Source: Elusimicrobiota bacterium
GTDB taxonomy: Bacteria; Elusimicrobiota; UBA8919
Assembly (NCBI GenBank): GCA_028718185.1
Contig: JAQUMH010000002.1
Coordinates: forward strand, 4,088 to 68,087
DNA: 64,000 nucleotides
Direction: 5' to 3'
A program made the position numbers and the translations under genes. Under the pieces are notes generated by a model. It was not told where the DNA came from and searched no databases. It saw nothing but the letters and a program-made list of their open reading frames with translations. Shown here one piece after another: positions 2,151-56,529 of the stretch (position 1 is the first letter of the stretch; every line of letters begins with the position of its first letter).

Positions 2151-3497
2151 TTATTTACCGATTAGAATATCTCTTACTTGTAAAATCTGTATCCCTCTCT
2201 CAAGAATTTCATCTTTTGCTTTTACATTTTGAACAATTGCAGTTGATGTTACAACATTGTAAGCGTCGGGCTTACCCGCTGCAGGTGAAACAGATTTTTT
2301 ATCTTTATCTTTATCCTTTTCTTTACCTTTATCTTTAGCATTTGCAATTTCATCATCTAATTCCTGTTTCTGAAGTGCAATTTCTGTCTCGCGTGTAACA
2401 TCGATAACTATATCAGGAGTTATTCCACCCGTTTTTTTCACTGGATCTCTATGAATACTTCTCCCGGATGGCGTATAATATTTTTGAGTTGTTAGTCTAA
2501 GCGATGCTCCACCTTCAAGCGGAAGAAGCGATTGGACAGAACCCTTACCGAATGACTGCATTCCTATAATAACTGCTCTCTTGTGATCTTGCATACAACC
2601 GGCAACTATTTCAGCCCCGGATGCAGAACCCTTATTAACTAAAACAACCATAGGAACATTTGCATAAGGAGCAGTTGAATCGCTGCGGTAATCCTGTCTC
2701 GGGAACTTTCTGCCCTGGGTAAAAACAATCAATTTATTTTCACCGACAAATCTTTTACAGATATCGACAGCAGTATTCAGCAACCCGCCCGGGTCATTTC
2801 TCAAATCAAAAACAATTGACTTCATACCTTGCTTCGTTAGCTCAGAAAGCGCAATGTCTAATTCTTCGGTTGTTTTTGCGTTCATTTCAGTAACCCTAAA
2901 ATAACCTATGGTATCAGTAAGCATCTTCGCTCCTACAACCGTTACAACCGGAATATCTTCTCTCGTCAATGTTAAATCAAACGGTTCTTTATCTTTACGA
3001 AATAAAGTTATCGTTACCTTGGTGCCGGGGAGACCCCGCAATTTTTCAACTGCCTTATCTGTTGAAAGATCTTTGGCATCTTCGCCGTTAATTTTTATAA
3101 TTTTATCTTCCGGTAAAATACCCATTCTCCACGCCGGTGTCCCTGGTATAGGTGTAACTACTGTAATCCAACCGTCATTTGATTCGGATATTCTGATTCC
3201 TAAACCCCCAAAATGACCTTCTGTATGAACTTTCATCTCTTTTGCTTCAGTAGGTTCCATGAACTGAGAAAAAGGGTCAAGTGTCCTCATCATTCCGTCA
3301 GCAGCACCGTAAATAAGCTTTTTCATATCCGGCTCATCTACATAACTTTCTCTTACATATACCAGTATCTGTGATAAAATCTTTATCTGGTTATAGACGT
3401 CATCAGAAGCTGCTTTGACCATGTCATACTTTAATAATGATACTCCTATTATTAAAAATAACACCAAAACTAAAAATCCTTTCTTTTTCTTAAACAT
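2151..3497 (-). CDS. ctpA: carboxy-terminal processing peptidase, S41A family (CtpA/Prc-like) with PDZ domain
   Basis: 448 aa with a signal/TM N-terminus. PDZ region (GGLGIRI, ILPEDKIIKING), catalytic-region motifs FDLRNDPGG and VLVNKGSASGAEI, and a C-terminal K/D-rich tail. Confidence 0.85.
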   Translation of the reverse strand: MFKKKKGFLVLVLFLIIGVSLLKYDMVKAASDDVYNQIKILSQILVYVRESYVDEPDMKKLIYGAADGMMRTLDPFSQFMEPTEAKEMKVHTEGHFGGLGIRISESNDGWITVVTPIPGTPAWRMGILPEDKIIKINGEDAKDLSTDKAVEKLRGLPGTKVTITLFRKDKEPFDLTLTREDIPVVTVVGAKMLTDTIGYFRVTEMNAKTTEELDIALSELTKQGMKSIVFDLRNDPGGLLNTAVDICKRFVGENKLIVFTQGRKFPRQDYRSDSTAPYANVPMVVLVNKGSASGAEIVAGCMQDHKRAVIIGMQSFGKGSVQSLLPLEGGASLRLTTQKYYTPSGRSIHRDPVKKTGGITPDIVIDVTRETEIALQKQELDDEIANAKDKGKEKDKDKDKKSVSPAAGKPDAYNVVTSTAIVQNVKAKDEILERGIQILQVRDILIGK

Positions 3498-3588: not shown

Positions 3589-3679
3589 GTCATTGCGAGC
3601 CCGCCAACGGTTCAGTGGCGGGCGTGGCAATCTCTATTTAAAAACTACGAGATTGCTTCACCTTCGGTTCGCAATGACA
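3589..3679. mobile_element. MITE-like palindromic element, canonical copy, in the ctpA/envC intergenic spacer
   Basis: gtcattgcgagc + hairpin ccgccaacggttcagtggcggg + gcaatctc, a 14-bp spacer, then gagattgc...ttcggttcgcaatgac. The terminal inverted repeats are perfect (gtcattgcga / tcgcaatgac). The same modules recur at 39700-39850, 60850-60955, 61270-61320, 44005-44230 and 35195-35225. Confidence 0.7.
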
Positions 3680-38510: not shown

Positions 38511-38746
38511 ATTCTTTACATCCAGTTTAATAATATCTGTTTTAAAATAATTATAAATATTTTAAGAACTTTGTCAAGTATTTTCCTTATTTAGCAAATT
38601 TTTATGTGCAATTATTAACACTATTTGCCAACTACTAGTTGATTATATTATTTTATGGTTACATTCTTAAATAATTTGTCAAGAGGTTATTTGTATATAT
38701 TGTTGTGCAATTATCGATATAATTAATTAATAAATATTTATTTATT

Positions 38747-38868
38747 ATCCCGATTTTTATTTATAGAATTTGTTATCGGGATTGTGTTCTCGGTCGTTTC
38801 AGCAGAGCCGACCTCCGAGCACTAACCCGATTTTTATTTATGGAATTTGTTATCGGAATTGTGTTTCC
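38747..38868. promoter_or_regulatory. two 41-bp direct repeats, each followed by a GC-rich hairpin, in the 730-bp AT-rich leader of the surface-protein operon
   Basis: DR1 (38747-38788) cccgatttttatttatagaatttgttatcgggattgtgtt; DR2 (38824-38865) cccgatttttatttatggaatttgttatcggaattgtgtt. Each is followed by a GC-rich palindrome (ctcggtcg...cgacctccgag; ccgagcatagactcgg). Upstream, tttgtcaag and tgcaattat motifs each recur. Confidence 0.5.
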
Positions 38869-39244
38869 CCTGATACTACGGGATCATGTTCTCATCCGGG
38901 GCAGCAGCTCCGGATTCCGAGCATAGACTCGGTCGATGCAATTGCTCCGGACCATGTGTGTTAATTTTACTAAACTGCAATTATTCTGTCAATGACCTAA
39001 TGCCACTTTTTTATGACTTTTTTCCACTATATGAAATTAATCGGTTCTGCATATTCAAATCCATTATAAAATAAAACAAACAATCATCCTCAACTATTAA
39101 CATACTTAATTAGACGAACAACTTGCAAAAACTCTGCACAATATATTTTCTCTCGACAAGTCTCGGAATTATTTTTTAGCTTTCAGAAAAGGGGACAGAA
39201 AAAGAGGCCACTTATTTAGAAGAAATACTACTTTTTAAGGATTT

Positions 39245-40285
39245 CTATTGTTTGTATTTTTTAGGTAGGCAGAACTTTTCTATAAAAGTGATTTTTTGTT
39301 CTTTTGTGAAATATTTTAGGAGTTTTTTTAAGCGTTTTTCAACAGGTTCTTGTTTTGGAGAGATTGCTGAGATATTCAAACTATTATCAATGATTTTCAA
39401 AATACCCCGCTTTTTAAATTCTTCCAGGATTTTTTTGGCTTTTTGTTCTTCCAGTGCTTTTACAAATTCATCCCTTATACGCGGTGCTGAAACCAGTGTT
39501 AGCAAGTTTCTCTTTATTGCAGATATCATCCATTTTTCTGTATTTTTTTCAAGCTTAAAACCAAAACGATGAGCATACCTTATTGCCCTTAGAATTCTGG
39601 TTGGGTCATCTATAAAACTGTTACTATGAAGCACACGAATTTGTTTTTTTTTAATGTCTTCTAAACCACCGTGTAAATCAATAATGTTATTAATTGCCAA
39701 GTTAGATTGCTTCGTCGCTCTGCTCCTCGCAATGACTACACTCTTTTTGTCATCGCGAACCGAAGGTAAAACAATCTCATAAACTTTGAAATTCCTAAAC
39801 ATCAAGTTAGATTCCCACTTTAGTGGGAATGATGAATCTTGGGAAAGCGGAAAGGCGAGGGCGTTGATTGTGAAATCACGGCGGAATAAATCGCTTTTCA
39901 AATTAGACGGGAAAACAATCGGCATTGAAGCGGGGGTTGGGTATTTTTCTGTTCTTGCTGTTGCAATGTCAATTACAAAACCATTTTTTAGCTTAAGGGA
40001 TGCTGTTAAGAATTTTTTATATATGTTAAGTTTTCCGCCGAGTTTTCCATGAATAACTTTTGCAACAGCTAATCCATCACCTTCTACCACCAAATCCAAA
40101 TCAATACTTTTTAGACCTAATACTTTATCACGAACATATCCGCCAACAATATAAATTTTACAATTAAATTGTTTTTCTGTTTTTCTTATAATTTCTACAT
40201 AATTATTGATTTTATTAAACCCCATATAAAACTCAGTCCTACTACAAGAATGGCAGAACCAATTATTGAACCTATTGTCAAACAT
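39245..40285 (-). CDS. cca: tRNA nucleotidyltransferase / poly(A) polymerase family (CCA-adding enzyme head domain) carrying an in-frame repeat-element insertion
   Basis: GGYVRDKVLG and RRDFTINALA motifs are present. About 50 extra residues sit between NALA and IIDLHGGLED. The likely true start is MGFNK (about 40225). The 5' end overlaps the downstream-oriented gene 40195-40659. Confidence 0.7.
   Translation of the reverse strand: MFDNRFNNWFCHSCSRTEFYMGFNKINNYVEIIRKTEKQFNCKIYIVGGYVRDKVLGLKSIDLDLVVEGDGLAVAKVIHGKLGGKLNIYKKFLTASLKLKNGFVIDIATARTEKYPTPASMPIVFPSNLKSDLFRRDFTINALAFPLSQDSSFPLKWESNLMFRNFKVYEIVLPSVRDDKKSVVIARSRATKQSNLAINNIIDLHGGLEDIKKKQIRVLHSNSFIDDPTRILRAIRYAHRFGFKLEKNTEKWMISAIKRNLLTLVSAPRIRDEFVKALEEQKAKKILEEFKKRGILKIIDNSLNISAISPKQEPVEKRLKKLLKYFTKEQKITFIEKFCLPKKYKQ
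39695..39855. mobile_element. MITE copy inserted in-frame inside the cca coding sequence
   Basis: The insert carries the modules catcaagttagattcccactttagtgggaatga (cf. 44054-44088), gagattgttttaccttcggttcgcgatgac and gtcattgcgaggagcagagcgacgaagcaatct (cf. 3589-3679, 60920-60953). It is translated as FPLSQDSSFPLKWESNLMFRNFKVYEIVLPSVRDDKKSVVIARSRATKQSNLA without a stop. Confidence 0.65.
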
Positions 40286-42680: not shown

Positions 42681-42787
42681 TTTAATATACGCGAAACTGA
42701 CCTGCCTACCGGCAGGTAGGCGCTAAATGTTTTACGCCTGTTTTGCGCTCCTCTTTACCTCTTTGTTATCCACTAAGCTCCTAATCG

Positions 42788-42910
42788 AAGAGCGAAGAAG
42801 TTGTTGAGCAGAACTTCACGGAGTTCCGCTTAAAACATTCAGCGGAACGAGTGAGAGTGCCCCGACGTAACGTCGGGGACAACGGTTCTGTGAGACAAGC
42901 TCCCGAACGG
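42788..42910. repeat. about 130-bp conserved structured element, copy 2, upstream of the pilT paralog
   Basis: See copy 1. The variable hairpin ccccgacgtaacgtcgggg sits at 42860-42878. Confidence 0.6.
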
Positions 42911-43975
42911 CTATCTGCCGGAAATTGCTGCTTTTACCATCTCCGGATTATGCGCTTTCGCTAAAGCATCTTCCATTTTTATCAATCCATCCCTAACAAG
43001 ACCACCAAGAACTTTATCGAGAGATATCATTCCTGCTTTTGCCCCTACTTCTATTGTCTGATATAACTGGTGCGTTTTACCTTCTCTTATAAGATTTGAA
43101 ATTGCAGGGGTAGCTATCATAATCTCTCTTGCTGCAATTCTCGAGTTACCATCAACAGTTTGAATAAGCGTTTGAGATATAACCGCTTGAAGTGAAGTGG
43201 AAAGCTGCATTCTTACCTGTTGCTGCTGGTGCGGCGGAAAAACATCAATGATTCTATCAACTGTTGAAGGAGCATCGGTTGTGTGAAGTGTAGCGAAAAC
43301 AAGGTGCCCGGTTTCGGCAATTGTTATTGCTGCTCCGATTGTTTCAAGATCTCTCATTTCACCTACAAGTACTATATCGGGATCTTCTCTAAGAGCATGT
43401 TTTAATGCCGCACCGAAAGAAAGTGTATGTTGCCCGACTTCTCTTTGAGTAACAACACAACCTTTTGATTCATAAACAAACTCAATAGGATCCTCAACAG
43501 TAAGAATATGGTCCTTCCTGGTTGTATTTACAAGATCCATCAAACAAGCGAGCGTCGTTGACTTACCGCTGCCAGTAGGTCCTGTTACAAGTACAAGTCC
43601 TCTTGCCAAACCTGCAAGTTTTGTAATTGCTTCCGGTAAACGTAATTGTTCAGGTGACGGTATTTTAGAAGAAATTACACGGAGTACAGCACCAATGCCA
43701 TTTCTGTGCATTAAAACATTTACCCTGAATCTTGAAACATTAGGTAAATTAAAAGAACAATCTAATTCAAGGTCTTCTTCAAATTTCTTCTTTTGTTCAT
43801 CATACAACATTGAATAGATTAACCGCTTTGCTTCATCAGGATTTATTATATCGGCAAATCCTTCAATAGTCTTCATTTCACCGACATGGCGGCACATAGG
43901 TGGTTTGCCTACAACGATATGTATATCCGAAGCCCCCTTTTTTACTGCTGTAGTCAAAATGTCAAAAATTTCCAT
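42911..43975 (-). CDS. pilT: twitching motility ATPase PilT
   Basis: 354 aa. The N-terminus MEIFDILTTAVKKGASDIHIVVGKPPM, Walker A GPTGSGKST, Walker B DPDIVLVGEMRDLETI, His box TLHTTDA and the AIRNLIREGK region are present. Confidence 0.85.
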   Translation of the reverse strand: MEIFDILTTAVKKGASDIHIVVGKPPMCRHVGEMKTIEGFADIINPDEAKRLIYSMLYDEQKKKFEEDLELDCSFNLPNVSRFRVNVLMHRNGIGAVLRVISSKIPSPEQLRLPEAITKLAGLARGLVLVTGPTGSGKSTTLACLMDLVNTTRKDHILTVEDPIEFVYESKGCVVTQREVGQHTLSFGAALKHALREDPDIVLVGEMRDLETIGAAITIAETGHLVFATLHTTDAPSTVDRIIDVFPPHQQQQVRMQLSTSLQAVISQTLIQTVDGNSRIAAREIMIATPAISNLIREGKTHQLYQTIEVGAKAGMISLDKVLGGLVRDGLIKMEDALAKAHNPEMVKAAISGR

Positions 43976-44004
43976 TTATCCTCCTGTATTTTATCTATAT
44001 GAAC

Positions 44005-44230
44005 AAATTAGGCACGCCAAGGGCGTGCTACTACAAACATTGATATTCTTATTCATCAAGATAGATTCCCACTTTCGTGGGAATGACACGCCATGATAGA
44101 TTGTCATTCCCGAGTGTCTCAATCGGGAATCCACAACATCGAAATTCTTATGCATCAAGTTATGCCCGCCACTGAACCGTTGGCGGGCAACGACAAAAAC
44201 ATTGTAGTGGCAGAGCTTTGCAACTATATT
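44005..44230. repeat. mosaic of at least five palindromic repeat modules in the pilT / DUF2851 spacer
   Basis: ggcacgccaagggcgtgctactaca (44010-44034); catcaagatagattcccactttcgtgggaatgaca (44054-44088); tgtcattcccgagtgtctcaatcgggaat (44102-44130); gcccgccactgaaccgttggcgggc (44163-44187, reverse complement of the hairpin in the 3589-3679 MITE); cattgtagtggcagagctttgc (44200-44221). Confidence 0.7.
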
Positions 44231-52300: not shown

Positions 52301-52396
52301 AAACACGAATTATCACGAATGTTATGACACATCACGAATTTATCACGAATATTCGTATCCTATTCGTGATTTTTTGGTTATTCGTGTTCATTCGTG
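52301..52396. promoter_or_regulatory. palindromic array of heptamers (4 x CACGAAT then 4 x ATTCGTG) abutting the start codon of the PMT_2-like gene
   Basis: cacgaat occurs at 52304, 52314, 52332 and 52344; attcgt(a/g) at 52351, 52362, 52379 and 52389. The symmetry centre is acgaatattcgt (52345-52356). The array begins 9 nt upstream of the ATG (reverse complement at 52290-52292). Confidence 0.5.
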
Positions 52397-54568
52397 TATT
52401 TGAGCGTTTTTCCTTGCCATGTAAAGATATTTCTGGGCATCGATATTGTTTGGATTGATTTTTAGAGTTTTTTCAAGTTCTTCAATAACTTTATCCCATT
52501 TATTAAGACGCCAATATGCCACTGCCATATTATAGTGTGCATCCATATAATCGGATTTAATTTTGACTGCTTCGTTATATTCGGAAATAGCTTCATTAGT
52601 TTTGTTTTGTTTTTCATAAATAGTCCCAAGATTATTATAAACAATTGCCCAATCGTAAAGAATTGAATCAACCACTTCCGGAAAAGACTTATATTCAATT
52701 GCATCATTGTACATTTTTGTATAATATTTTATTGATTCCTTATAGTAATACTCGGTTTTTTCTAAATCATTTTTTTGATAATAAAGCCAGCCGAGATTAT
52801 AATATATAGAAGGATAATCTTCTTTTATTGATATTGCTTCATTAAATTTTATTATTGCATCTTTTTCTTTATCTTCCCTCATAAAGAAAAGACCTGCTTT
52901 GAACAAAGAATCGGCATATTGTGAGATAATTTTCTGTGTAAAAAAATCCGGATATGCAGATGCATTGAGAACGCTTCTCTTTATGTAAAATTCCACAAAA
53001 TTAACCGGCTTATCAAATACTGTTTTTATATCTTTTACCTGAAAAACCAGCCCATAAGGATAAACATAATATTTCTGACCAAGCATTTCGTAATCTTCAA
53101 CATCACTTGTAAAACAGACATTCCTGTTTTTATTGAATATATAAAACTGGGAAAATGTATCCGGATTATTTAATGAAAAAACATCCGTATTTTTATATTT
53201 TTTTAACGTTTCCTGATACCATTTACTTCCCGAAAGTCCTTTTGCTATAACTGTAATATCATTACGTTTATTTTCCACATACTGTAAATACCATTCTGAA
53301 AAAACCTGAATATCTTCTCTTGATATAATTATTGAATTGGCCGGAAGAGACCTGAAAACGTTCCTTGCAAAATCGTATGCAGTAAAATTATTACGCATAT
53401 TTTGTTTACCTATATTTAATGTAAATAACCATATTGGAATTATTAAAAAAATAATAGAAACCGTTTTTAACTTTCGGGACACAAAATATATCCCGAAACC
53501 AAACCACAAAGCAAGCATTAAATCAGAAATTAAATAGTGCGGTTCCACAATTGCAAGTGCATACGGGTTAGGCGGCATTTTAGCAATTGTAATGAAAAAA
53601 GGTCCTGTGATAATGTAAATCATTAATGTTGATATCAAAAAATCCTTTTTTGCTTTATACAAATATAAAAATCCAAAAAATACTATCGGAATACCAATAA
53701 TGGTAAATAGATTAAAAGTTCTTTCTAAATAGACCTTCATTCCCGAGTAAAAAACATCACTGATTTTATATCTTGTGGAGATTAAATCCAATGTTTTCCC
53801 GTGCGTTTTACGGGTAATTGTATCCATTACTGTCTGTATATTATCGGGTTTATTCCAATTTAGATATGGCTGAGTTTTTGACCTTGCAGGCAAAAATGCA
53901 AATATAGAAAAACCAAGAAAAAACAGAATTACATAAGTAATTATATTTTTAATTGAAAAAAGGTTTTGTATTTTACTCTTTACAACCCAATATAAAATCC
54001 CGGGAACAATTAAAATTATCTCAATACGGTTGCCTGTCGCTAGCCCTAACAGGAAAGAAACGAGTAACAAGTAACGAGTAGTGAGTAATAAATAAATTAT
54101 CAATACAATAAAAAAGATGTTTAGAGTATACATTTCCGCGACTACTGAAACAGACCATAAGGTCTTGGAAAAAGCAAAAATAAGAACAGGTAAGCAGGCG
54201 GATAATAAGAAAGCGGGATTGTGCGATTGTGGGATTGTGGAATAGAGAGAGTGCGGGATTGCGGGATTGTGGGATTGCGGGATAGAAAAAGAACAGGTCA
54301 ACTGCTTTATAATCAAATATATGATACTACAAGTTAAAGCGCCAAAAACAGCACTCATGCAGTTTACACGATAGGCTATATTTCCGAATGGAATTAAAAT
54401 TGTAAAGATTTTTCCAAGAACCACATATAACGGATACCCGGGCGGGTGAGCTATTCCATACTTGTAACAAACAGATACCATCTCTCCTGCATCACGATAG
54501 ATTGCAACCGACGGGAACAATGTATAAACAAACACCCAAAATGTTAATAAAAACAAGAAATAAATCAT
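52388..54568 (-). CDS. DUF2723 (TMEM260-like GT-C fold putative protein O-glycosyl/mannosyl-transferase) fused to C-terminal TPR repeats; paralog 1
   Basis: 726 aa. N-terminal YRDAGEMVSVCYKYGIAHPPGYPLY, a DUF2723 hallmark shared with paralogs 2 and 3. At least 10 TM helices. An in-frame IPQSHNPA-type repeat encoded by 9-bp gggattgtg/gcgggattg repeats (54211-54285). C-terminal TPRs. Confidence 0.55.
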   Translation of the reverse strand: MIYFLFLLTFWVFVYTLFPSVAIYRDAGEMVSVCYKYGIAHPPGYPLYVVLGKIFTILIPFGNIAYRVNCMSAVFGALTCSIIYLIIKQLTCSFSIPQSHNPAIPHSLYSTIPQSHNPAFLLSACLPVLIFAFSKTLWSVSVVAEMYTLNIFFIVLIIYLLLTTRYLLLVSFLLGLATGNRIEIILIVPGILYWVVKSKIQNLFSIKNIITYVILFFLGFSIFAFLPARSKTQPYLNWNKPDNIQTVMDTITRKTHGKTLDLISTRYKISDVFYSGMKVYLERTFNLFTIIGIPIVFFGFLYLYKAKKDFLISTLMIYIITGPFFITIAKMPPNPYALAIVEPHYLISDLMLALWFGFGIYFVSRKLKTVSIIFLIIPIWLFTLNIGKQNMRNNFTAYDFARNVFRSLPANSIIISREDIQVFSEWYLQYVENKRNDITVIAKGLSGSKWYQETLKKYKNTDVFSLNNPDTFSQFYIFNKNRNVCFTSDVEDYEMLGQKYYVYPYGLVFQVKDIKTVFDKPVNFVEFYIKRSVLNASAYPDFFTQKIISQYADSLFKAGLFFMREDKEKDAIIKFNEAISIKEDYPSIYYNLGWLYYQKNDLEKTEYYYKESIKYYTKMYNDAIEYKSFPEVVDSILYDWAIVYNNLGTIYEKQNKTNEAISEYNEAVKIKSDYMDAHYNMAVAYWRLNKWDKVIEELEKTLKINPNNIDAQKYLYMARKNAQIHE

Positions 54569-56529
54569 AATCTTTTTTTAGCTATTTCCAGATAATTTTT
54601 CACATCAGCTCTTTCCGGATTTATCTGTAAAACTTTTTCAAATTCTTCCACCACACCCTGCCAGTTTTTCATATCCCAGTATAAAGCTGCTAAACTATAA
54701 TGTGCATCTTCATAATTTGGGAATATTTCAATGGCATTTTTAAACATTAATATCGCCGTATTTTTTTGATTAGTTTCAATATAATACTTTGATAATGTAA
54801 GATAATAAAAATAAGCTAAAATAGCATCACGAAACCTCGAATACTTTCCTCTTAATGCATAAATATAAGAAAAATCATGTTGAGGCATTTCCTTGTTAAG
54901 TGAATATAAAAGCCCTGCATTATAAAATTTCATATCACTGAAATAATCAGGATTTTCAGCTAAATAATAAGTGCTTTTCCCGCTATCTAAAATCATTTTT
55001 CTTTCAATCGGCAACCTAACCATCCGCCTTTCACTACCCTTAATCCAATAATACCTATCACCATATATGTTGGGAAAAACACTTGCATTACAGTCAAAAA
55101 CATCTACTGTCGGCCTTCTTTTTTCAACTATTTTCTGATATGCAAGAATAAATACAGATTCATCTGCTTTATCCAGAAAAAGCAATGAGTTATTTGAAAC
55201 AGTTTTCAAAATATTTTTGCCGAGGTCAAACGGGAAGAAATTGTATCTTAAATTGTTTCTTTGAAAGTTTGCCGAAAACTGGAAAACCAAAAATCCTGTT
55301 ATAAAAATATAAGCCACGAACGTGCAAACCGCTTTATGGTAAACCCAGGTTGTTTTATCGACTATATACTTTACCCCCATACCAATCCATATTGCGAATA
55401 TTATTACTGAAGGTATGTGAAAGGGTTCGAGCAGGTCTCTCGTAGAATCATCTACAGGTTTATTAGCCAAAAACATAAAAATTGGTCCAGAAAAAAAGAA
55501 GATTAAAAATAGAAACCAAAAATATTTCTTTTCTTTTTTATAATTATAAATAAAACCGGTAATTCCTAAAATAGATCCAAAGACAGTAAATGAATCTACG
55601 ATATTTTTAATATATTCCCAAAGCTGCTGCATCAGCAGAGGCAGGGGTCTAAATAAATATCCCCCTTTCTCTTCAATATGCATTACACCGCCGTATCCTA
55701 TCCTGAAAACTACTCTTAAAAAATTTATAAACTTACCGGGATTGTCCCAATTGGCTATCGGATTTTGGCGGGAACGAATAAACAAATATAAATATAGTGA
55801 AAAACCAAGTAAAAAAAATAGCGTCCAATGTCCGATGTCCCTGCCCCGTGGCAAGGCGGGCGATGTCCAATGTCTTAAAGGTTTATTTTGAACTGAGTTT
55901 GCTCCGCTCAAAACAGGATACTTAGGACTTTGGAGTATTAAATATAACATACCGGGAAATAAAAGTACTAGTGTATGGTGGTTACAAAGCCCTAAACCGA
56001 ATAAGAAAGAAATGAGTAACGAGTAACGATTAACGAGTAATAAATAAATAATCAATATGACAAAAAACGCGTTTAATGTGTATATCCCGCCTTTTGTCTG
56101 GACACATTGAGACCAAAATATATTAGAAAAAGCTAAGAAAAAGGCGGATAAGAAAGCGGGAAAGCGGGAAAGTGGGAAAGCGGGATTGTGCGATTGAGAG
56201 ATAGCGGAATCGTGGGATTGTGCGATTGTGGGATTGTGGGATAGAGGGTCAGCGGACGAGCTGGTAAGATGCTTCATTAACAAATACATTATACCGCAGG
56301 TTAATGCTCCGAAAAAGACGCTCATGCAATTTACACGATATGCTATGTTTCCATAAGGGATTAAAATTGTAAATATCTTCCCAAGCAACACATACAACGG
56401 ATATCCCGGCGGGTGACTAATACCCAAAACGTACGAAGAAGTTATAAGTTCGCCACTATCGCCTGTACATACAGTAGGTGAAGAAGTGAATAGTAATATT
56501 CCTAAGTTTATCAAAAATACTATTATCAT
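54565..56529 (-). CDS. DUF2723 + TPR membrane glycosyltransferase-like protein; paralog 2
   Basis: 654 aa. CTGDSGELITSSYVLGISHPPGYPLYVLLGKIF. VNTR region 56155-56250 (gcgggaaag/gggattgtg units encoding SHNPTIAQSHDSAISQSHNPAF). C-terminal TPRs. Confidence 0.55.
   Translation of the reverse strand: MIIVFLINLGILLFTSSPTVCTGDSGELITSSYVLGISHPPGYPLYVLLGKIFTILIPYGNIAYRVNCMSVFFGALTCGIMYLLMKHLTSSSADPLSHNPTIAQSHDSAISQSHNPAFPLSRFPAFLSAFFLAFSNIFWSQCVQTKGGIYTLNAFFVILIIYLLLVNRYSLLISFLFGLGLCNHHTLVLLFPGMLYLILQSPKYPVLSGANSVQNKPLRHWTSPALPRGRDIGHWTLFFLLGFSLYLYLFIRSRQNPIANWDNPGKFINFLRVVFRIGYGGVMHIEEKGGYLFRPLPLLMQQLWEYIKNIVDSFTVFGSILGITGFIYNYKKEKKYFWFLFLIFFFSGPIFMFLANKPVDDSTRDLLEPFHIPSVIIFAIWIGMGVKYIVDKTTWVYHKAVCTFVAYIFITGFLVFQFSANFQRNNLRYNFFPFDLGKNILKTVSNNSLLFLDKADESVFILAYQKIVEKRRPTVDVFDCNASVFPNIYGDRYYWIKGSERRMVRLPIERKMILDSGKSTYYLAENPDYFSDMKFYNAGLLYSLNKEMPQHDFSYIYALRGKYSRFRDAILAYFYYLTLSKYYIETNQKNTAILMFKNAIEIFPNYEDAHYSLAALYWDMKNWQGVVEEFEKVLQINPERADVKNYLEIAKKRL

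Follow-up and report, generated by a model that had tools for sequence, protein, structure and literature searches.

How does a gene for a tRNA-maturing enzyme come to carry, in frame, DNA of a kind that otherwise lies between genes? The question is raised by a stretch of 64,000 nt from an Elusimicrobiota bacterium (assembly GCA_028718185.1, contig JAQUMH010000002.1), referred to below as the window. At 39245-40225 on its minus strand lies a gene for a class-II tRNA nucleotidyltransferase of a short, "cca-like" form, 326 residues long with the insert included. A first-pass annotation had placed a MITE, a miniature transposable element of the inverted-repeat kind, within this gene. The core of that proposal, an in-frame repeat of an otherwise intergenic family in a class-II gene, stands in the light of ortholog alignment, frame analysis, hairpin counts and a structure model. 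As to its origin, it is probable that two small mobile units, among them a mini-element resembling IS801, landed in frame and persisted in the loop between motifs B and C of the enzyme (B-C loop).

An insert of 44 codons in a class-II nucleotidyltransferase

The window protein was aligned with 21 syntenic orthologs from Elusimicrobiota metagenome-assembled genomes (MAGs) and metagenomes, giving a set of 22 sequences. The orthologs share a neighbourhood of overlapping genes, in which a cNMP-binding/GAF gene is followed by an Sm_multidrug_ex gene and then by the nucleotidyltransferase gene. Most of them measure 277-285 aa; five have 290-313 aa and one, N-terminally incomplete, has 246 aa. A block of 44-45 residues (SFPLKWESNLMFRNFKVYEIVLPSVRDDKKSVVIARSRATKQSN), flanked by RRDFTINALAFPLSQDS and LAINNIIDLHGG, is unique to the window protein, and no ortholog has an equally long one. 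As had been annotated, this repeat-bearing block sits between motif B (RRDFTINA) and motif C (IIDxxGG). Measured with one regular expression in 79 homologues, the B-to-C spacer has 13 residues in 50 of them and 15 in another 13, against 59 in the window protein. Relative to a spacer of 15, the extra sequence therefore amounts to 44 residues (132 nt). Extra residues had been correctly noticed, but they number 44 and not about 50, and the usual spacer, given as 5-8 residues, is about 15 in the clade by this measure. Ortholog alignment, spacer lengths, frame analysis and the per-residue confidence (pLDDT, predicted local distance difference test) of a structure model place the whole insert at about 39701-39832 on the minus strand. 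This placement is uncertain by about 3-11 nt because of an internal repeat, AATCTAACTTG. In alignments with the solved structure 3H37 and with an Aquifex enzyme, query residues 129 to 181 stand opposite chain residues 142 to 148.

All columns that are invariant or nearly so among the 22 sequences are also conserved in the window protein. The six-frame check bears out the earlier statement that the insert is free of stop codons, since the frame used is the sole open one and the other five contain 1-5 stops each. The coding-strand RNA of the region is more stable than shuffled sequences (-45.5 kcal/mol, z = -2.1). It is highly unlikely that the insert is an assembly artefact produced by repeat reads misjoined within the gene. 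The sequence comes from one MAG contig and repeats are a classical cause of misassembly; however, both flanks continue the gene in frame, the length of the insert is divisible by three, the contig extends over 301 kb, and comparable in-frame repeat insertions occur in orthologs that were assembled independently.

The identity of the gene is indicated by Pfam and PDB matches, synteny and Foldseek. Its open reading frame (ORF) spans 39245-40285 on the minus strand, and the likeliest start, at position 40225 (MGFNK), yields the 326-aa product. The gene overlaps the upstream Sm_multidrug_ex gene, as is also seen in the orthologs. The protein is identical to NCBI entry PHE88_04790, from an Elusimicrobia MAG (301-kb contig), and matches the Pfam families PolyA_pol (7e-24) and PolyA_pol_RNAbd (3e-9). 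The nearest solved structures are the CCA-adding enzyme of T. maritima (3H37, 1.6e-53) and the A-adding enzyme of Aquifex. Of the head-domain motifs, A (GGxVRD...DxD), B (RRDFTxNA), C (xxDxxGGxxD), D (DDPxR) and E (RAxRF), none is missing and each is invariant across the aligned orthologs. All NCBIfam equivalogs score below their cut-offs, the best with 165 bits for a cut-off of 1440 and 102 for a cut-off of 439. Without the insert, the protein would have ~281 aa, and the ~150-aa body and tail present in 3H37 are missing. tRNA scans of the window and of three related loci found no tRNA gene. Throughout the clade the nucleotidyltransferase is of ~281 aa (39245-40225, P0002-P0022, P0045 and others) and lacks what forms the body and tail in the T. 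maritima enzyme (441 aa); homologues from Omnitrophota are even shorter (221 aa). Both forms may be minimal class-II enzymes of biochemical interest.

Anatomy of the insert

The three modules named in the first-pass annotation are real, and each has intergenic relatives. The sequence ATTCCCACTTTAGTGGGAAT recurs at 44065-44084 with one mismatch (0.05 expected), and GAGATTG...TTCGGTTCGCGATGAC matches 3637-3679 at 81% over 43 nt. The hairpin pattern GTCATTSC-N6-36-GSAATC has eight copies in the window, at 3589, 3651, 35177, 39705, 44064, 44103, 60917 and 61288, where 0.03 are expected. Only the copy at 39705-39736 is intragenic. It is accompanied in the gene by a degenerate reversed copy, GTCATCGCGAA..CAATCTC, at 39749-39778. 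Between the first hairpin of the insert (hairpin A, below) and these GTCATT hairpins lies a 25-mer, CTTGATGTTTAGGAATTTCAAAGTT on the coding strand, with further copies at 44036-44060 and 44135-44159 (0 expected).

The insert appears to be made of two parts, a 26-nt hairpin of the dRS3/NTS type and a 105-nt miniature element of the IS91 family. On the coding strand the order is GAT TCA, then TCATTCCCACTAAAGTGGGAATCTAA CTTG, then ATGTTTAGGAATTTCAAAGTT TAT GAGATTGTTTTACCTTCGGTTCGCGATGAC AAAAAGAGTGTA GTCATTGCGAGGAGCAGAGCGACGAAGCAATC TAACTTG, then GCA ATT. Hairpin A (TCATTCCCACTAAAGTGGGAATCTAA, 39807-39832, minus strand) is like an Ssn-related motif (SRM) and resembles a solo "ter-like" end; its sister copy lies at 44064-44087. 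It is followed by 5'-CTTG (39803-39806, minus strand), which adjoins the ori-like end as in the target signature of the IS91 family. The oriIS-like terminal 21-mer, ATGTTTAGGAATTTCAAAGTT, occupies 39782-39802 on the minus strand. Its assignment draws on three window copies (0 expected), on metagenome contigs and on its likeness to IS801, whose end, ATGCATAGGAATTTCAAAATG, is identical at 17 of the 21 bases. The reversed GTCAT..AATC hairpin (39749-39778; GTCATCGCGAACCGAAGGTAAAACAATCTC on the plus strand) corresponds to GAGATTGTTTTACCTTCGGTTCGCGATGAC, just before AAAAAGAGTGTA. It is translated as EIVLPSVRDD and is 81% complementary to the intergenic sequence 3637-3679. The forward hairpin GTCATTGCGAGGAGCAGAGCGACGAAGCAATC and the TAACTTG that follows it (39698-39736, minus strand) form the ter-like end, analogous to the ter of IS801 (GC hairpin, CCTGTTC). 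The mini-element thus defined runs from ATG to the second CTTG (39698-39802), which leaves 27 nt for the remainder of the insert; both lengths are multiples of three.

Two intergenic sister mini-elements lie in tandem on the minus strand, one of 99 nt (44057-44155) and one of 53 nt (44004-44056), and their ends are built in the same way. The hairpin pair of the cca element, its two members inverted with respect to each other, has its nearest relatives at 3589-3678, in an intergenic inverted doublet of GTCATTGCGA..GCAATC hairpins.

The term MITE fits in part. The element is small (53-105 nt), non-coding and multi-copy (three in the window), and its 21-mer is common to IS801 and to metagenomic elements of IS91 type, so that its ends are shared with autonomous insertion sequences. 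However, the ends ATGTTTAGGAATTTC... and ...GCAATCTAACTTG are not complementary, so that there are no terminal inverted repeats. Nor is there a target-site duplication, since the sister copies and a metagenome element (L080) share CTTG alone between flank and element end. The flanking repeat CTAACTTG, like the 11-nt repeat in the cca gene, is best read as the target on one side and the element's own terminus on the other.

Rfam, searched with the window and eight loci, assigned neither the 25-mer nor another repeat to an RNA family, and the 25-mer, looked for as a text string in the literature, gave no match. The 25-mer had also been considered as a sigma-70 promoter (TTGAAA-N16-TAGATT), an idea that was dropped because the -10-like part is not conserved in the metagenome copies.

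The 21-mer as an IS91-family terminus

Elements of the IS91 family insert without target duplication; their oriIS lies next to a 5'-CTTG or 5'-GTTC target, terIS carries a subterminal palindrome, and transposition can be one-ended (PMC13181058). A metagenome scan with the motif CTTGATGNNTARGAATNTCNANGTT returned 77 contigs from many sites, with 63 distinct contexts. The copies are almost invariant even at unspecified positions, whereas their flanks are unrelated, and conservation reaches only ~3 nt past the motif (TAA, then CTTG). In 53 of the 63 contexts no ORF of at least 100 aa contains the 25-mer. Relaxed copies start with CTTG, GTTC or ATTC. Clustering of the neighbourhoods yielded a sole recurrent recognisable family, that of an IS91-type transposase (Pfam Y2_Tnp 3.7e-43 and Zn_Tnp_IS91 1.8e-20). 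At four of the five loci with both domains, the motif is found 147-314 nt past the tnpA stop and in one orientation (tnpA, then ...AAC..CAT, then CAAG).

Comparison of the consensus with plasmids by BLAST retrieved 86 Pseudomonas records, with exact matches (25/25) in P. syringae; a match on an E. coli plasmid has no adjacent IS91 gene. The decisive copies came from a scan of 50 kb of NC_007274.1, the large plasmid of P. savastanoi pv. phaseolicola 1448A. This plasmid contains four IS801-type copies in which (C/G)TT(G/C) directly precedes ATGCATAGGAATTTCAA, with the ori end 161-162 nt beyond segments homologous to tnpA. Two of the four end exactly 1512 nt later with GCAGCCGCAGGCTGC-CCTGTTC, and 1512 nt is the published length of IS801. 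The ori-end pattern, target plus end, can be written (C/G)TT(G/C)-ATGNWTAGGAATTTC.

The mini-elements reproduce this organisation. A conserved oriIS end is directly abutted by 5'-CTTG or 5'-GTTC, and at the other end a subterminal palindrome is combined with a target-like tetranucleotide, without duplication, in the cca element, in 44057-44155 and in L080. Metagenome elements with the same ends are L080, L024/L045 and L021. The first of these ends in GAATCTAACTTG, and its left flank shares just CTTG with it. Such copies, together with the sisters in the window, argue against target duplication and for insertion of the IS91 type. In another contig (L037), a second element's ori end comes right after the ter side (…GCCGAAGGCTTAG-CTTG) of a full one. 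This arrangement, with the fact that GCCGAAGGCCTAA-CTTG is common to many metagenome contexts, explains the tandem arrays.

These observations also bear on a different origin, in which template switching or gene conversion brought a copy of the 105 nt into the gene from an intergenic repeat array, via the 11-nt microhomology AATCTAACTTG and without transposition. The unit is indeed bracketed by an 11-nt direct repeat, and similar arrays are present at 44004-44190. We nevertheless hold this to be improbable, as the same ends recur in unrelated contigs that have only CTTG in common with the flank (for example L080), as insertion of the IS91 type accounts for the repeat without extra assumptions, and as the window contains no identical donor, the closest relatives being 81-87% identical.

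The likeness to IS801 thus concerns the 21-mer, the abutting CTTG/GTTC, the lack of target duplication and a ter consisting of a GC hairpin followed by (C/G)TT(G/C). One-ended transposition of IS801 has given mini-derivatives of 229, 360 and 679 nt in Pseudomonas syringae pv. phaseolicola (PMC3189936; PMC13181058), and active miniature derivatives retain the right end and terminate at a tetranucleotide that resembles the target (PMC3189936). Like these mini-derivatives, the cca element has no transposase inside. However, it has just 105 nt (99 and 53 nt for the sisters), and its interior consists of host-type GTCATT..AATC hairpins and not of IS801 sequence. Other differences are that the Elusimicrobiota mini-elements form tandem arrays, that one is translated within a gene, and that the 21-mer is widespread in groundwater and sediment metagenomes.

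On two plasmids of the P. syringae group, IS801-type ori ends (L087 and L088, both at 2501-2525) lie 4-6 nt after the stop codons of genes for type III effector-like peptidases (C48, C58), with no transposase within 2.5 kb. They are solo ends beside virulence genes, as the literature notes for IS801 fragments.

Hairpins related to dRS3, NTS and REP sequences

Ssn proteins are site-specific nucleases of single-stranded DNA, and their genes are typically flanked by hairpins such as dRS3 (ATTCCC-N8-GGGAAT) or NTS (CGTCATTCCCGCGMAVGCGGGAATCYRG) (PMC11893778). Hairpin A is an exact fit to the dRS3 core, and its sister copy, GTCATTCCCACGAAAGTGGGAATCT, departs from NTS in essentially one stem pair, where the change is compensated. 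In addition, the window contains a single-domain GIY-YIG gene (60949-61251, minus strand, 100 aa; Pfam GIY-YIG 3.4e-16) bracketed by GTCATT..AATC hairpins at 60859-60948 and 61240-61313. By analogy, this layout resembles the NTS-ssnA-NTS arrangement, although searches of NCBIfam and the PDB with the protein gave weak generic GIY-YIG matches only. Elusimicrobiota, in which the Ssn-type layout is met here, are not mentioned in the text of PMC11893778 (term search). The published SRM pattern, HGTCWYN(0-2)YYVSBRHN(0-5)WNVSBRGN(0-2)RNCYNB, has no exact match in the window, and with 1-2 substitutions allowed it performs no better than on shuffled sequence. Because the pattern is unmatched and relaxing it loses specificity, the hairpins are called here Ssn-related-like and not members of the family.

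The question then is whether such hairpins could suffice to account for the insert. It would be a cluster of Ssn-related hairpins of the REP/BIME kind, spread by the neighbouring GIY-YIG (Ssn-like) nuclease or a REP-type process, the 21-mer being a linker or protein-binding site. This is consistent with the eight GTCATT..AATC hairpins of the window, with the GIY-YIG gene that they flank, with the fit of hairpin A to dRS3 and of its sister to a sequence close to the NTS consensus, and with the typical flanking of Ssn genes by hairpins (PMC11893778). However, Ssn proteins are described as single-stranded DNA nucleases only, with no insertion activity described (PMC11893778), the SRM pattern finds nothing in the window, and the 21-mer with CTTG/GTTC ends bona fide IS801 copies, mostly without such hairpins. 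We therefore consider this explanation unlikely.

Neisserial dRS3/NTS sequences are similar to the window repeats in the core of hairpin A, in the near-NTS sister copy and in the hairpin-flanked GIY-YIG gene of 100 aa. They differ in that most window copies have a GC...GC stem core (GTCATTGCGA..GCAATC) and leave the SRM pattern unmatched. In N. meningitidis just 2% of NTS are intragenic, and PMC11893778 makes no mention (term search) of an in-frame or intragenic use of NTS. With REP/BIME/REPIN sequences, the repeats share short GC-rich hairpins, alternating doublets and a mostly intergenic location. Unlike these, they come with no Y1 (RAYT) gene that could be seen, the unit in the gene ends in IS91 fashion, and the hairpin heads are GTCATT in the window instead of GTAG or CGTC as in REP.

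Two metagenome contigs from an unrelated environment (L020, L074) show a near-perfect match to the NTS consensus (GTCATTCCCGCGAAAGCGGGAATCC) directly 3' of the 25-mer, which may point to a broader connection of Ssn-related hairpins with mini-elements of IS91 type.

Probable tolerance of the insert by the enzyme

An AlphaFold2 model built on the ortholog alignment has a mean pLDDT of 85 and a predicted template modelling (TM) score of 0.82. Residues 132-176 are below 50 in pLDDT, against more than 90 on both flanks, and the insert takes the place of a beta-hairpin turn between a strand at 124-126 and a strand at ~181-182. Foldseek superposes the model on the CCA- or A-adding enzymes 3H38, 4WBY, 5HC9 and 4WC2, with TM scores of ~0.65-0.69 (3H38, 0.69) that are normalised on the query, disordered loop included. 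The insert had been expected to form a loop; in the model it lies at the tip of the B-C beta-hairpin, disordered and outside the fold. The 44 added residues would thus be translated as a disordered surface loop.

The same loop has been enlarged independently in four other orthologs. P0005 has 25 additional residues, encoded by two CCGCCA..TGGCGG hairpins plus GTCCCTC octamers. P0006 has 13-14 (L001, about 3400-3480), with a hairpin ATCCCCCC..GGGGGGAT within a perfect 12-nt direct repeat, AAATTACAAATT, which looks like a target duplication or the slippage footprint of a different repeat family. P0016 has 13, with the hairpin CCCCCGATTAAAATCGGGGG, and P0008 has four. Insertions at other sites of the protein are found in P0013, P0016 and P0018. 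Taken together, these sequences suggest that class-II nucleotidyltransferases are permissive in the B-C loop, a property that would be useful for enzyme engineering.

Most likely, the enzyme with its insert is still functional. We infer this retained activity, whereas the direct results comprise the indel and its open frame, the family of the repeats, their ends of IS91 type and the fold as predicted. A contrary case can be made from the ori 21-mer of the cca gene, which is the least diverged of the three window copies and suggests a recent event, and from the atypical short form of the family. The gene would then be a young pseudogene whose enzyme has been inactivated, with a second nucleotidyltransferase doing the work. 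This is rather unlikely, given that the reading frame remains intact through the only open frame, that the conserved residues are all kept, that four other orthologs have independent insertions in the same loop and that the predicted fold is unaffected.

A partial parallel may exist in an ECF (extracytoplasmic function) sigma factor gene from a metagenome (L082, 380-1054), where the 25-mer (742-766) is read in the same frame (NLMSRNFKV) within the sigma2-sigma4 linker. The closest homologue, annotated as Kiritimatiellia, is 11 aa shorter there and the stretch is unalignable, so that no clean indel can be delimited.

Proposed origin and comparison with known systems

It can be proposed that the two small units landed in the DNA that codes for the tip of the B-C beta-hairpin. 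Units of these lengths (about 27 and 105 nt), with just one frame open, would have kept the protein intact. The larger unit would be a transposase-less miniature derivative of an IS801-like rolling-circle insertion sequence of the IS91 family. It would start with the ori-end 21-mer directly 3' of a 5'-CTTG target and end with a hairpin plus TAACTTG, mirroring the ter of IS801 (GC hairpin plus CCTGTTC). Such elements could be moved in trans by a Y2 transposase of the IS91 type, leaving no target duplication, and this is how the cca element was presumably mobilised. The smaller unit, a dRS3/NTS-like hairpin followed by CTAACTTG, would have supplied, or be the remnant of, a ter-like end offering the CTTG target. 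The geometry accordingly suggests two steps, with hairpin A arriving before the 105-nt unit.

Several points weigh against this scenario. The insertion is known from one MAG contig and the closest ortholog is ~70% identical; a very recent, mildly deleterious insertion would look identical. tblastn detected no IS91-type transposase in the window or in ~50 kb of four relatives (L001-L004), the search having covered 64 kb of this contig, whose length is at least 301 kb. A hairpin (minimum free energy at or below -10) stands just upstream of the target in 22% against 10%, a weak excess (p = 0.075). Only 8% of the metagenome contexts of the 21-mer have GTCATT..AATC hairpins (controls, 1.7%), and because they are so rare beside it the interior of the element is taken as variable and not conserved. 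The comparison of interior and exterior DNA identity among metagenome copies of the insertion sequence is uninformative at that divergence.

The first-pass annotation had drawn parallels with two families of palindromic repeats. That with Rickettsia palindromic elements is apt, as both are in-frame and tolerated insertions. In each case a palindromic selfish repeat of ~100-150 nt lies in frame in a housekeeping gene, with one open frame and, by prediction, compatibility with the fold. The resemblance is functional only; the phylum is another, and so are the ends, which in the cca element are of IS91 type. To our knowledge, in-frame selfish repeats in core genes are best documented in Rickettsia, and we know of no machinery that mobilises them there. 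In Rickettsia conorii, 44 such elements are integrated in unrelated metabolic genes (PMC10969869, summarising Ogata et al. 2000), whereas in the 64-kb window one gene is clearly affected. The parallel with the Correia elements of Neisseria is less fortunate. These have 26-bp terminal inverted repeats and a TA duplication. They are similar to the cca insert in size (~100-150 nt) and in their occasional location in or near genes, but the insert shows neither inverted termini nor duplication, and the fitting match in Neisseria is dRS3/NTS, that is, Ssn-related hairpins.

More tentatively, and with a chance that we put at somewhat less than even, the cca element would belong to a widespread, undescribed class of IS91-type mini-elements of ~50-105 nt. 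This class would be defined only by a 21-nt ori end beside CTTG/GTTC and by a terminus consisting of a hairpin and (TAA)CTTG. Its members would pick up host hairpin repeats, Ssn-related or REP-like, and would form tandem intergenic arrays by insertion next to each other's ends. Thanks to their one open frame, they would persist as disordered loops in essential genes (tRNA nucleotidyltransferase, ECF sigma linker). If true, the Rickettsia palindromic elements would have in such a class a free-living counterpart, and one whose mechanism of transposition can be identified.

Selfish DNA that reshapes a protein in this way is rare but not without precedent, and both in-frame palindromic insertions and mini-derivatives of IS801 are already known. 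What is new is that the two are combined, that the element is so small, that the 21-mer is so widely spread in the environment and that one and the same enzyme loop has been used repeatedly. The finding joins rolling-circle insertion sequences, hairpin repeats of the Ssn/NTS type and the evolution of protein loops, which are usually treated separately. Because the ends are recognisably of the IS91/IS801 type, a defined transposase and a substrate of 105 nt can be used to test how such protein insertions arise. For annotation, there is a warning that "hypothetical" stretches such as VIARSxATKQS or LMxRNFKV in MAG proteins are translated repeats.

Other repeats in the window

The window has a GC content of 34%, and GC islands were scanned for repeats that are read through by ORFs. 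Three tandem paralogs of a TMEM260-like + TPR membrane protein (52388-54568, 54565-56529 and 56526-58787, all on the minus strand) contain arrays of the 8-nt unit (GGGATTGY)n, at 54196-54293, 56147-56260 and 58415-58480. The arrays are translated as IPQSHNP-type stretches whose length differs from one paralog to the next. At 55816-55881, the middle paralog alone has a translated GC hairpin (RHWTSPALPRGRDIGHWT) with GGACATYG octamers on its flanks, and is ~20 aa longer there than its neighbours; this is a candidate for a second in-frame repeat insertion in the window.

In a GlgE-like ORF (10833-12737, minus strand), the Pfam domain GLGE_C stops at residue 543 and ~90 further residues are read through a hairpin at 11070-11121. 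The hairpin is of GTAG type (GTAGTAGCGCGCCCTTGGCGCGCC) and resembles that of the 53-nt mini-element at 44004-44056. The tail may be a repeat-mediated C-terminal extension or the product of a gene fusion.

Just downstream of the cca-like gene, a gap of 730 nt contains at 38746-38953 a pair of direct repeats of 43 nt (TATCCCGATTTTTATTTATAGAATTTGTTATCGGGATTGTGTT), with a strong GC hairpin after each of them and no match in Rfam. Finally, an 82-nt repeat, also unmatched in Rfam, occurs at 12797-12924 and 42780-42931, in copies that are 95% identical and continue into GC-rich hairpin tails. Each copy lies just upstream of a minus-strand gene, the two genes being unrelated (GlgE-like and PilT-like), and the repeat could be a leader RNA or another mobile repeat.

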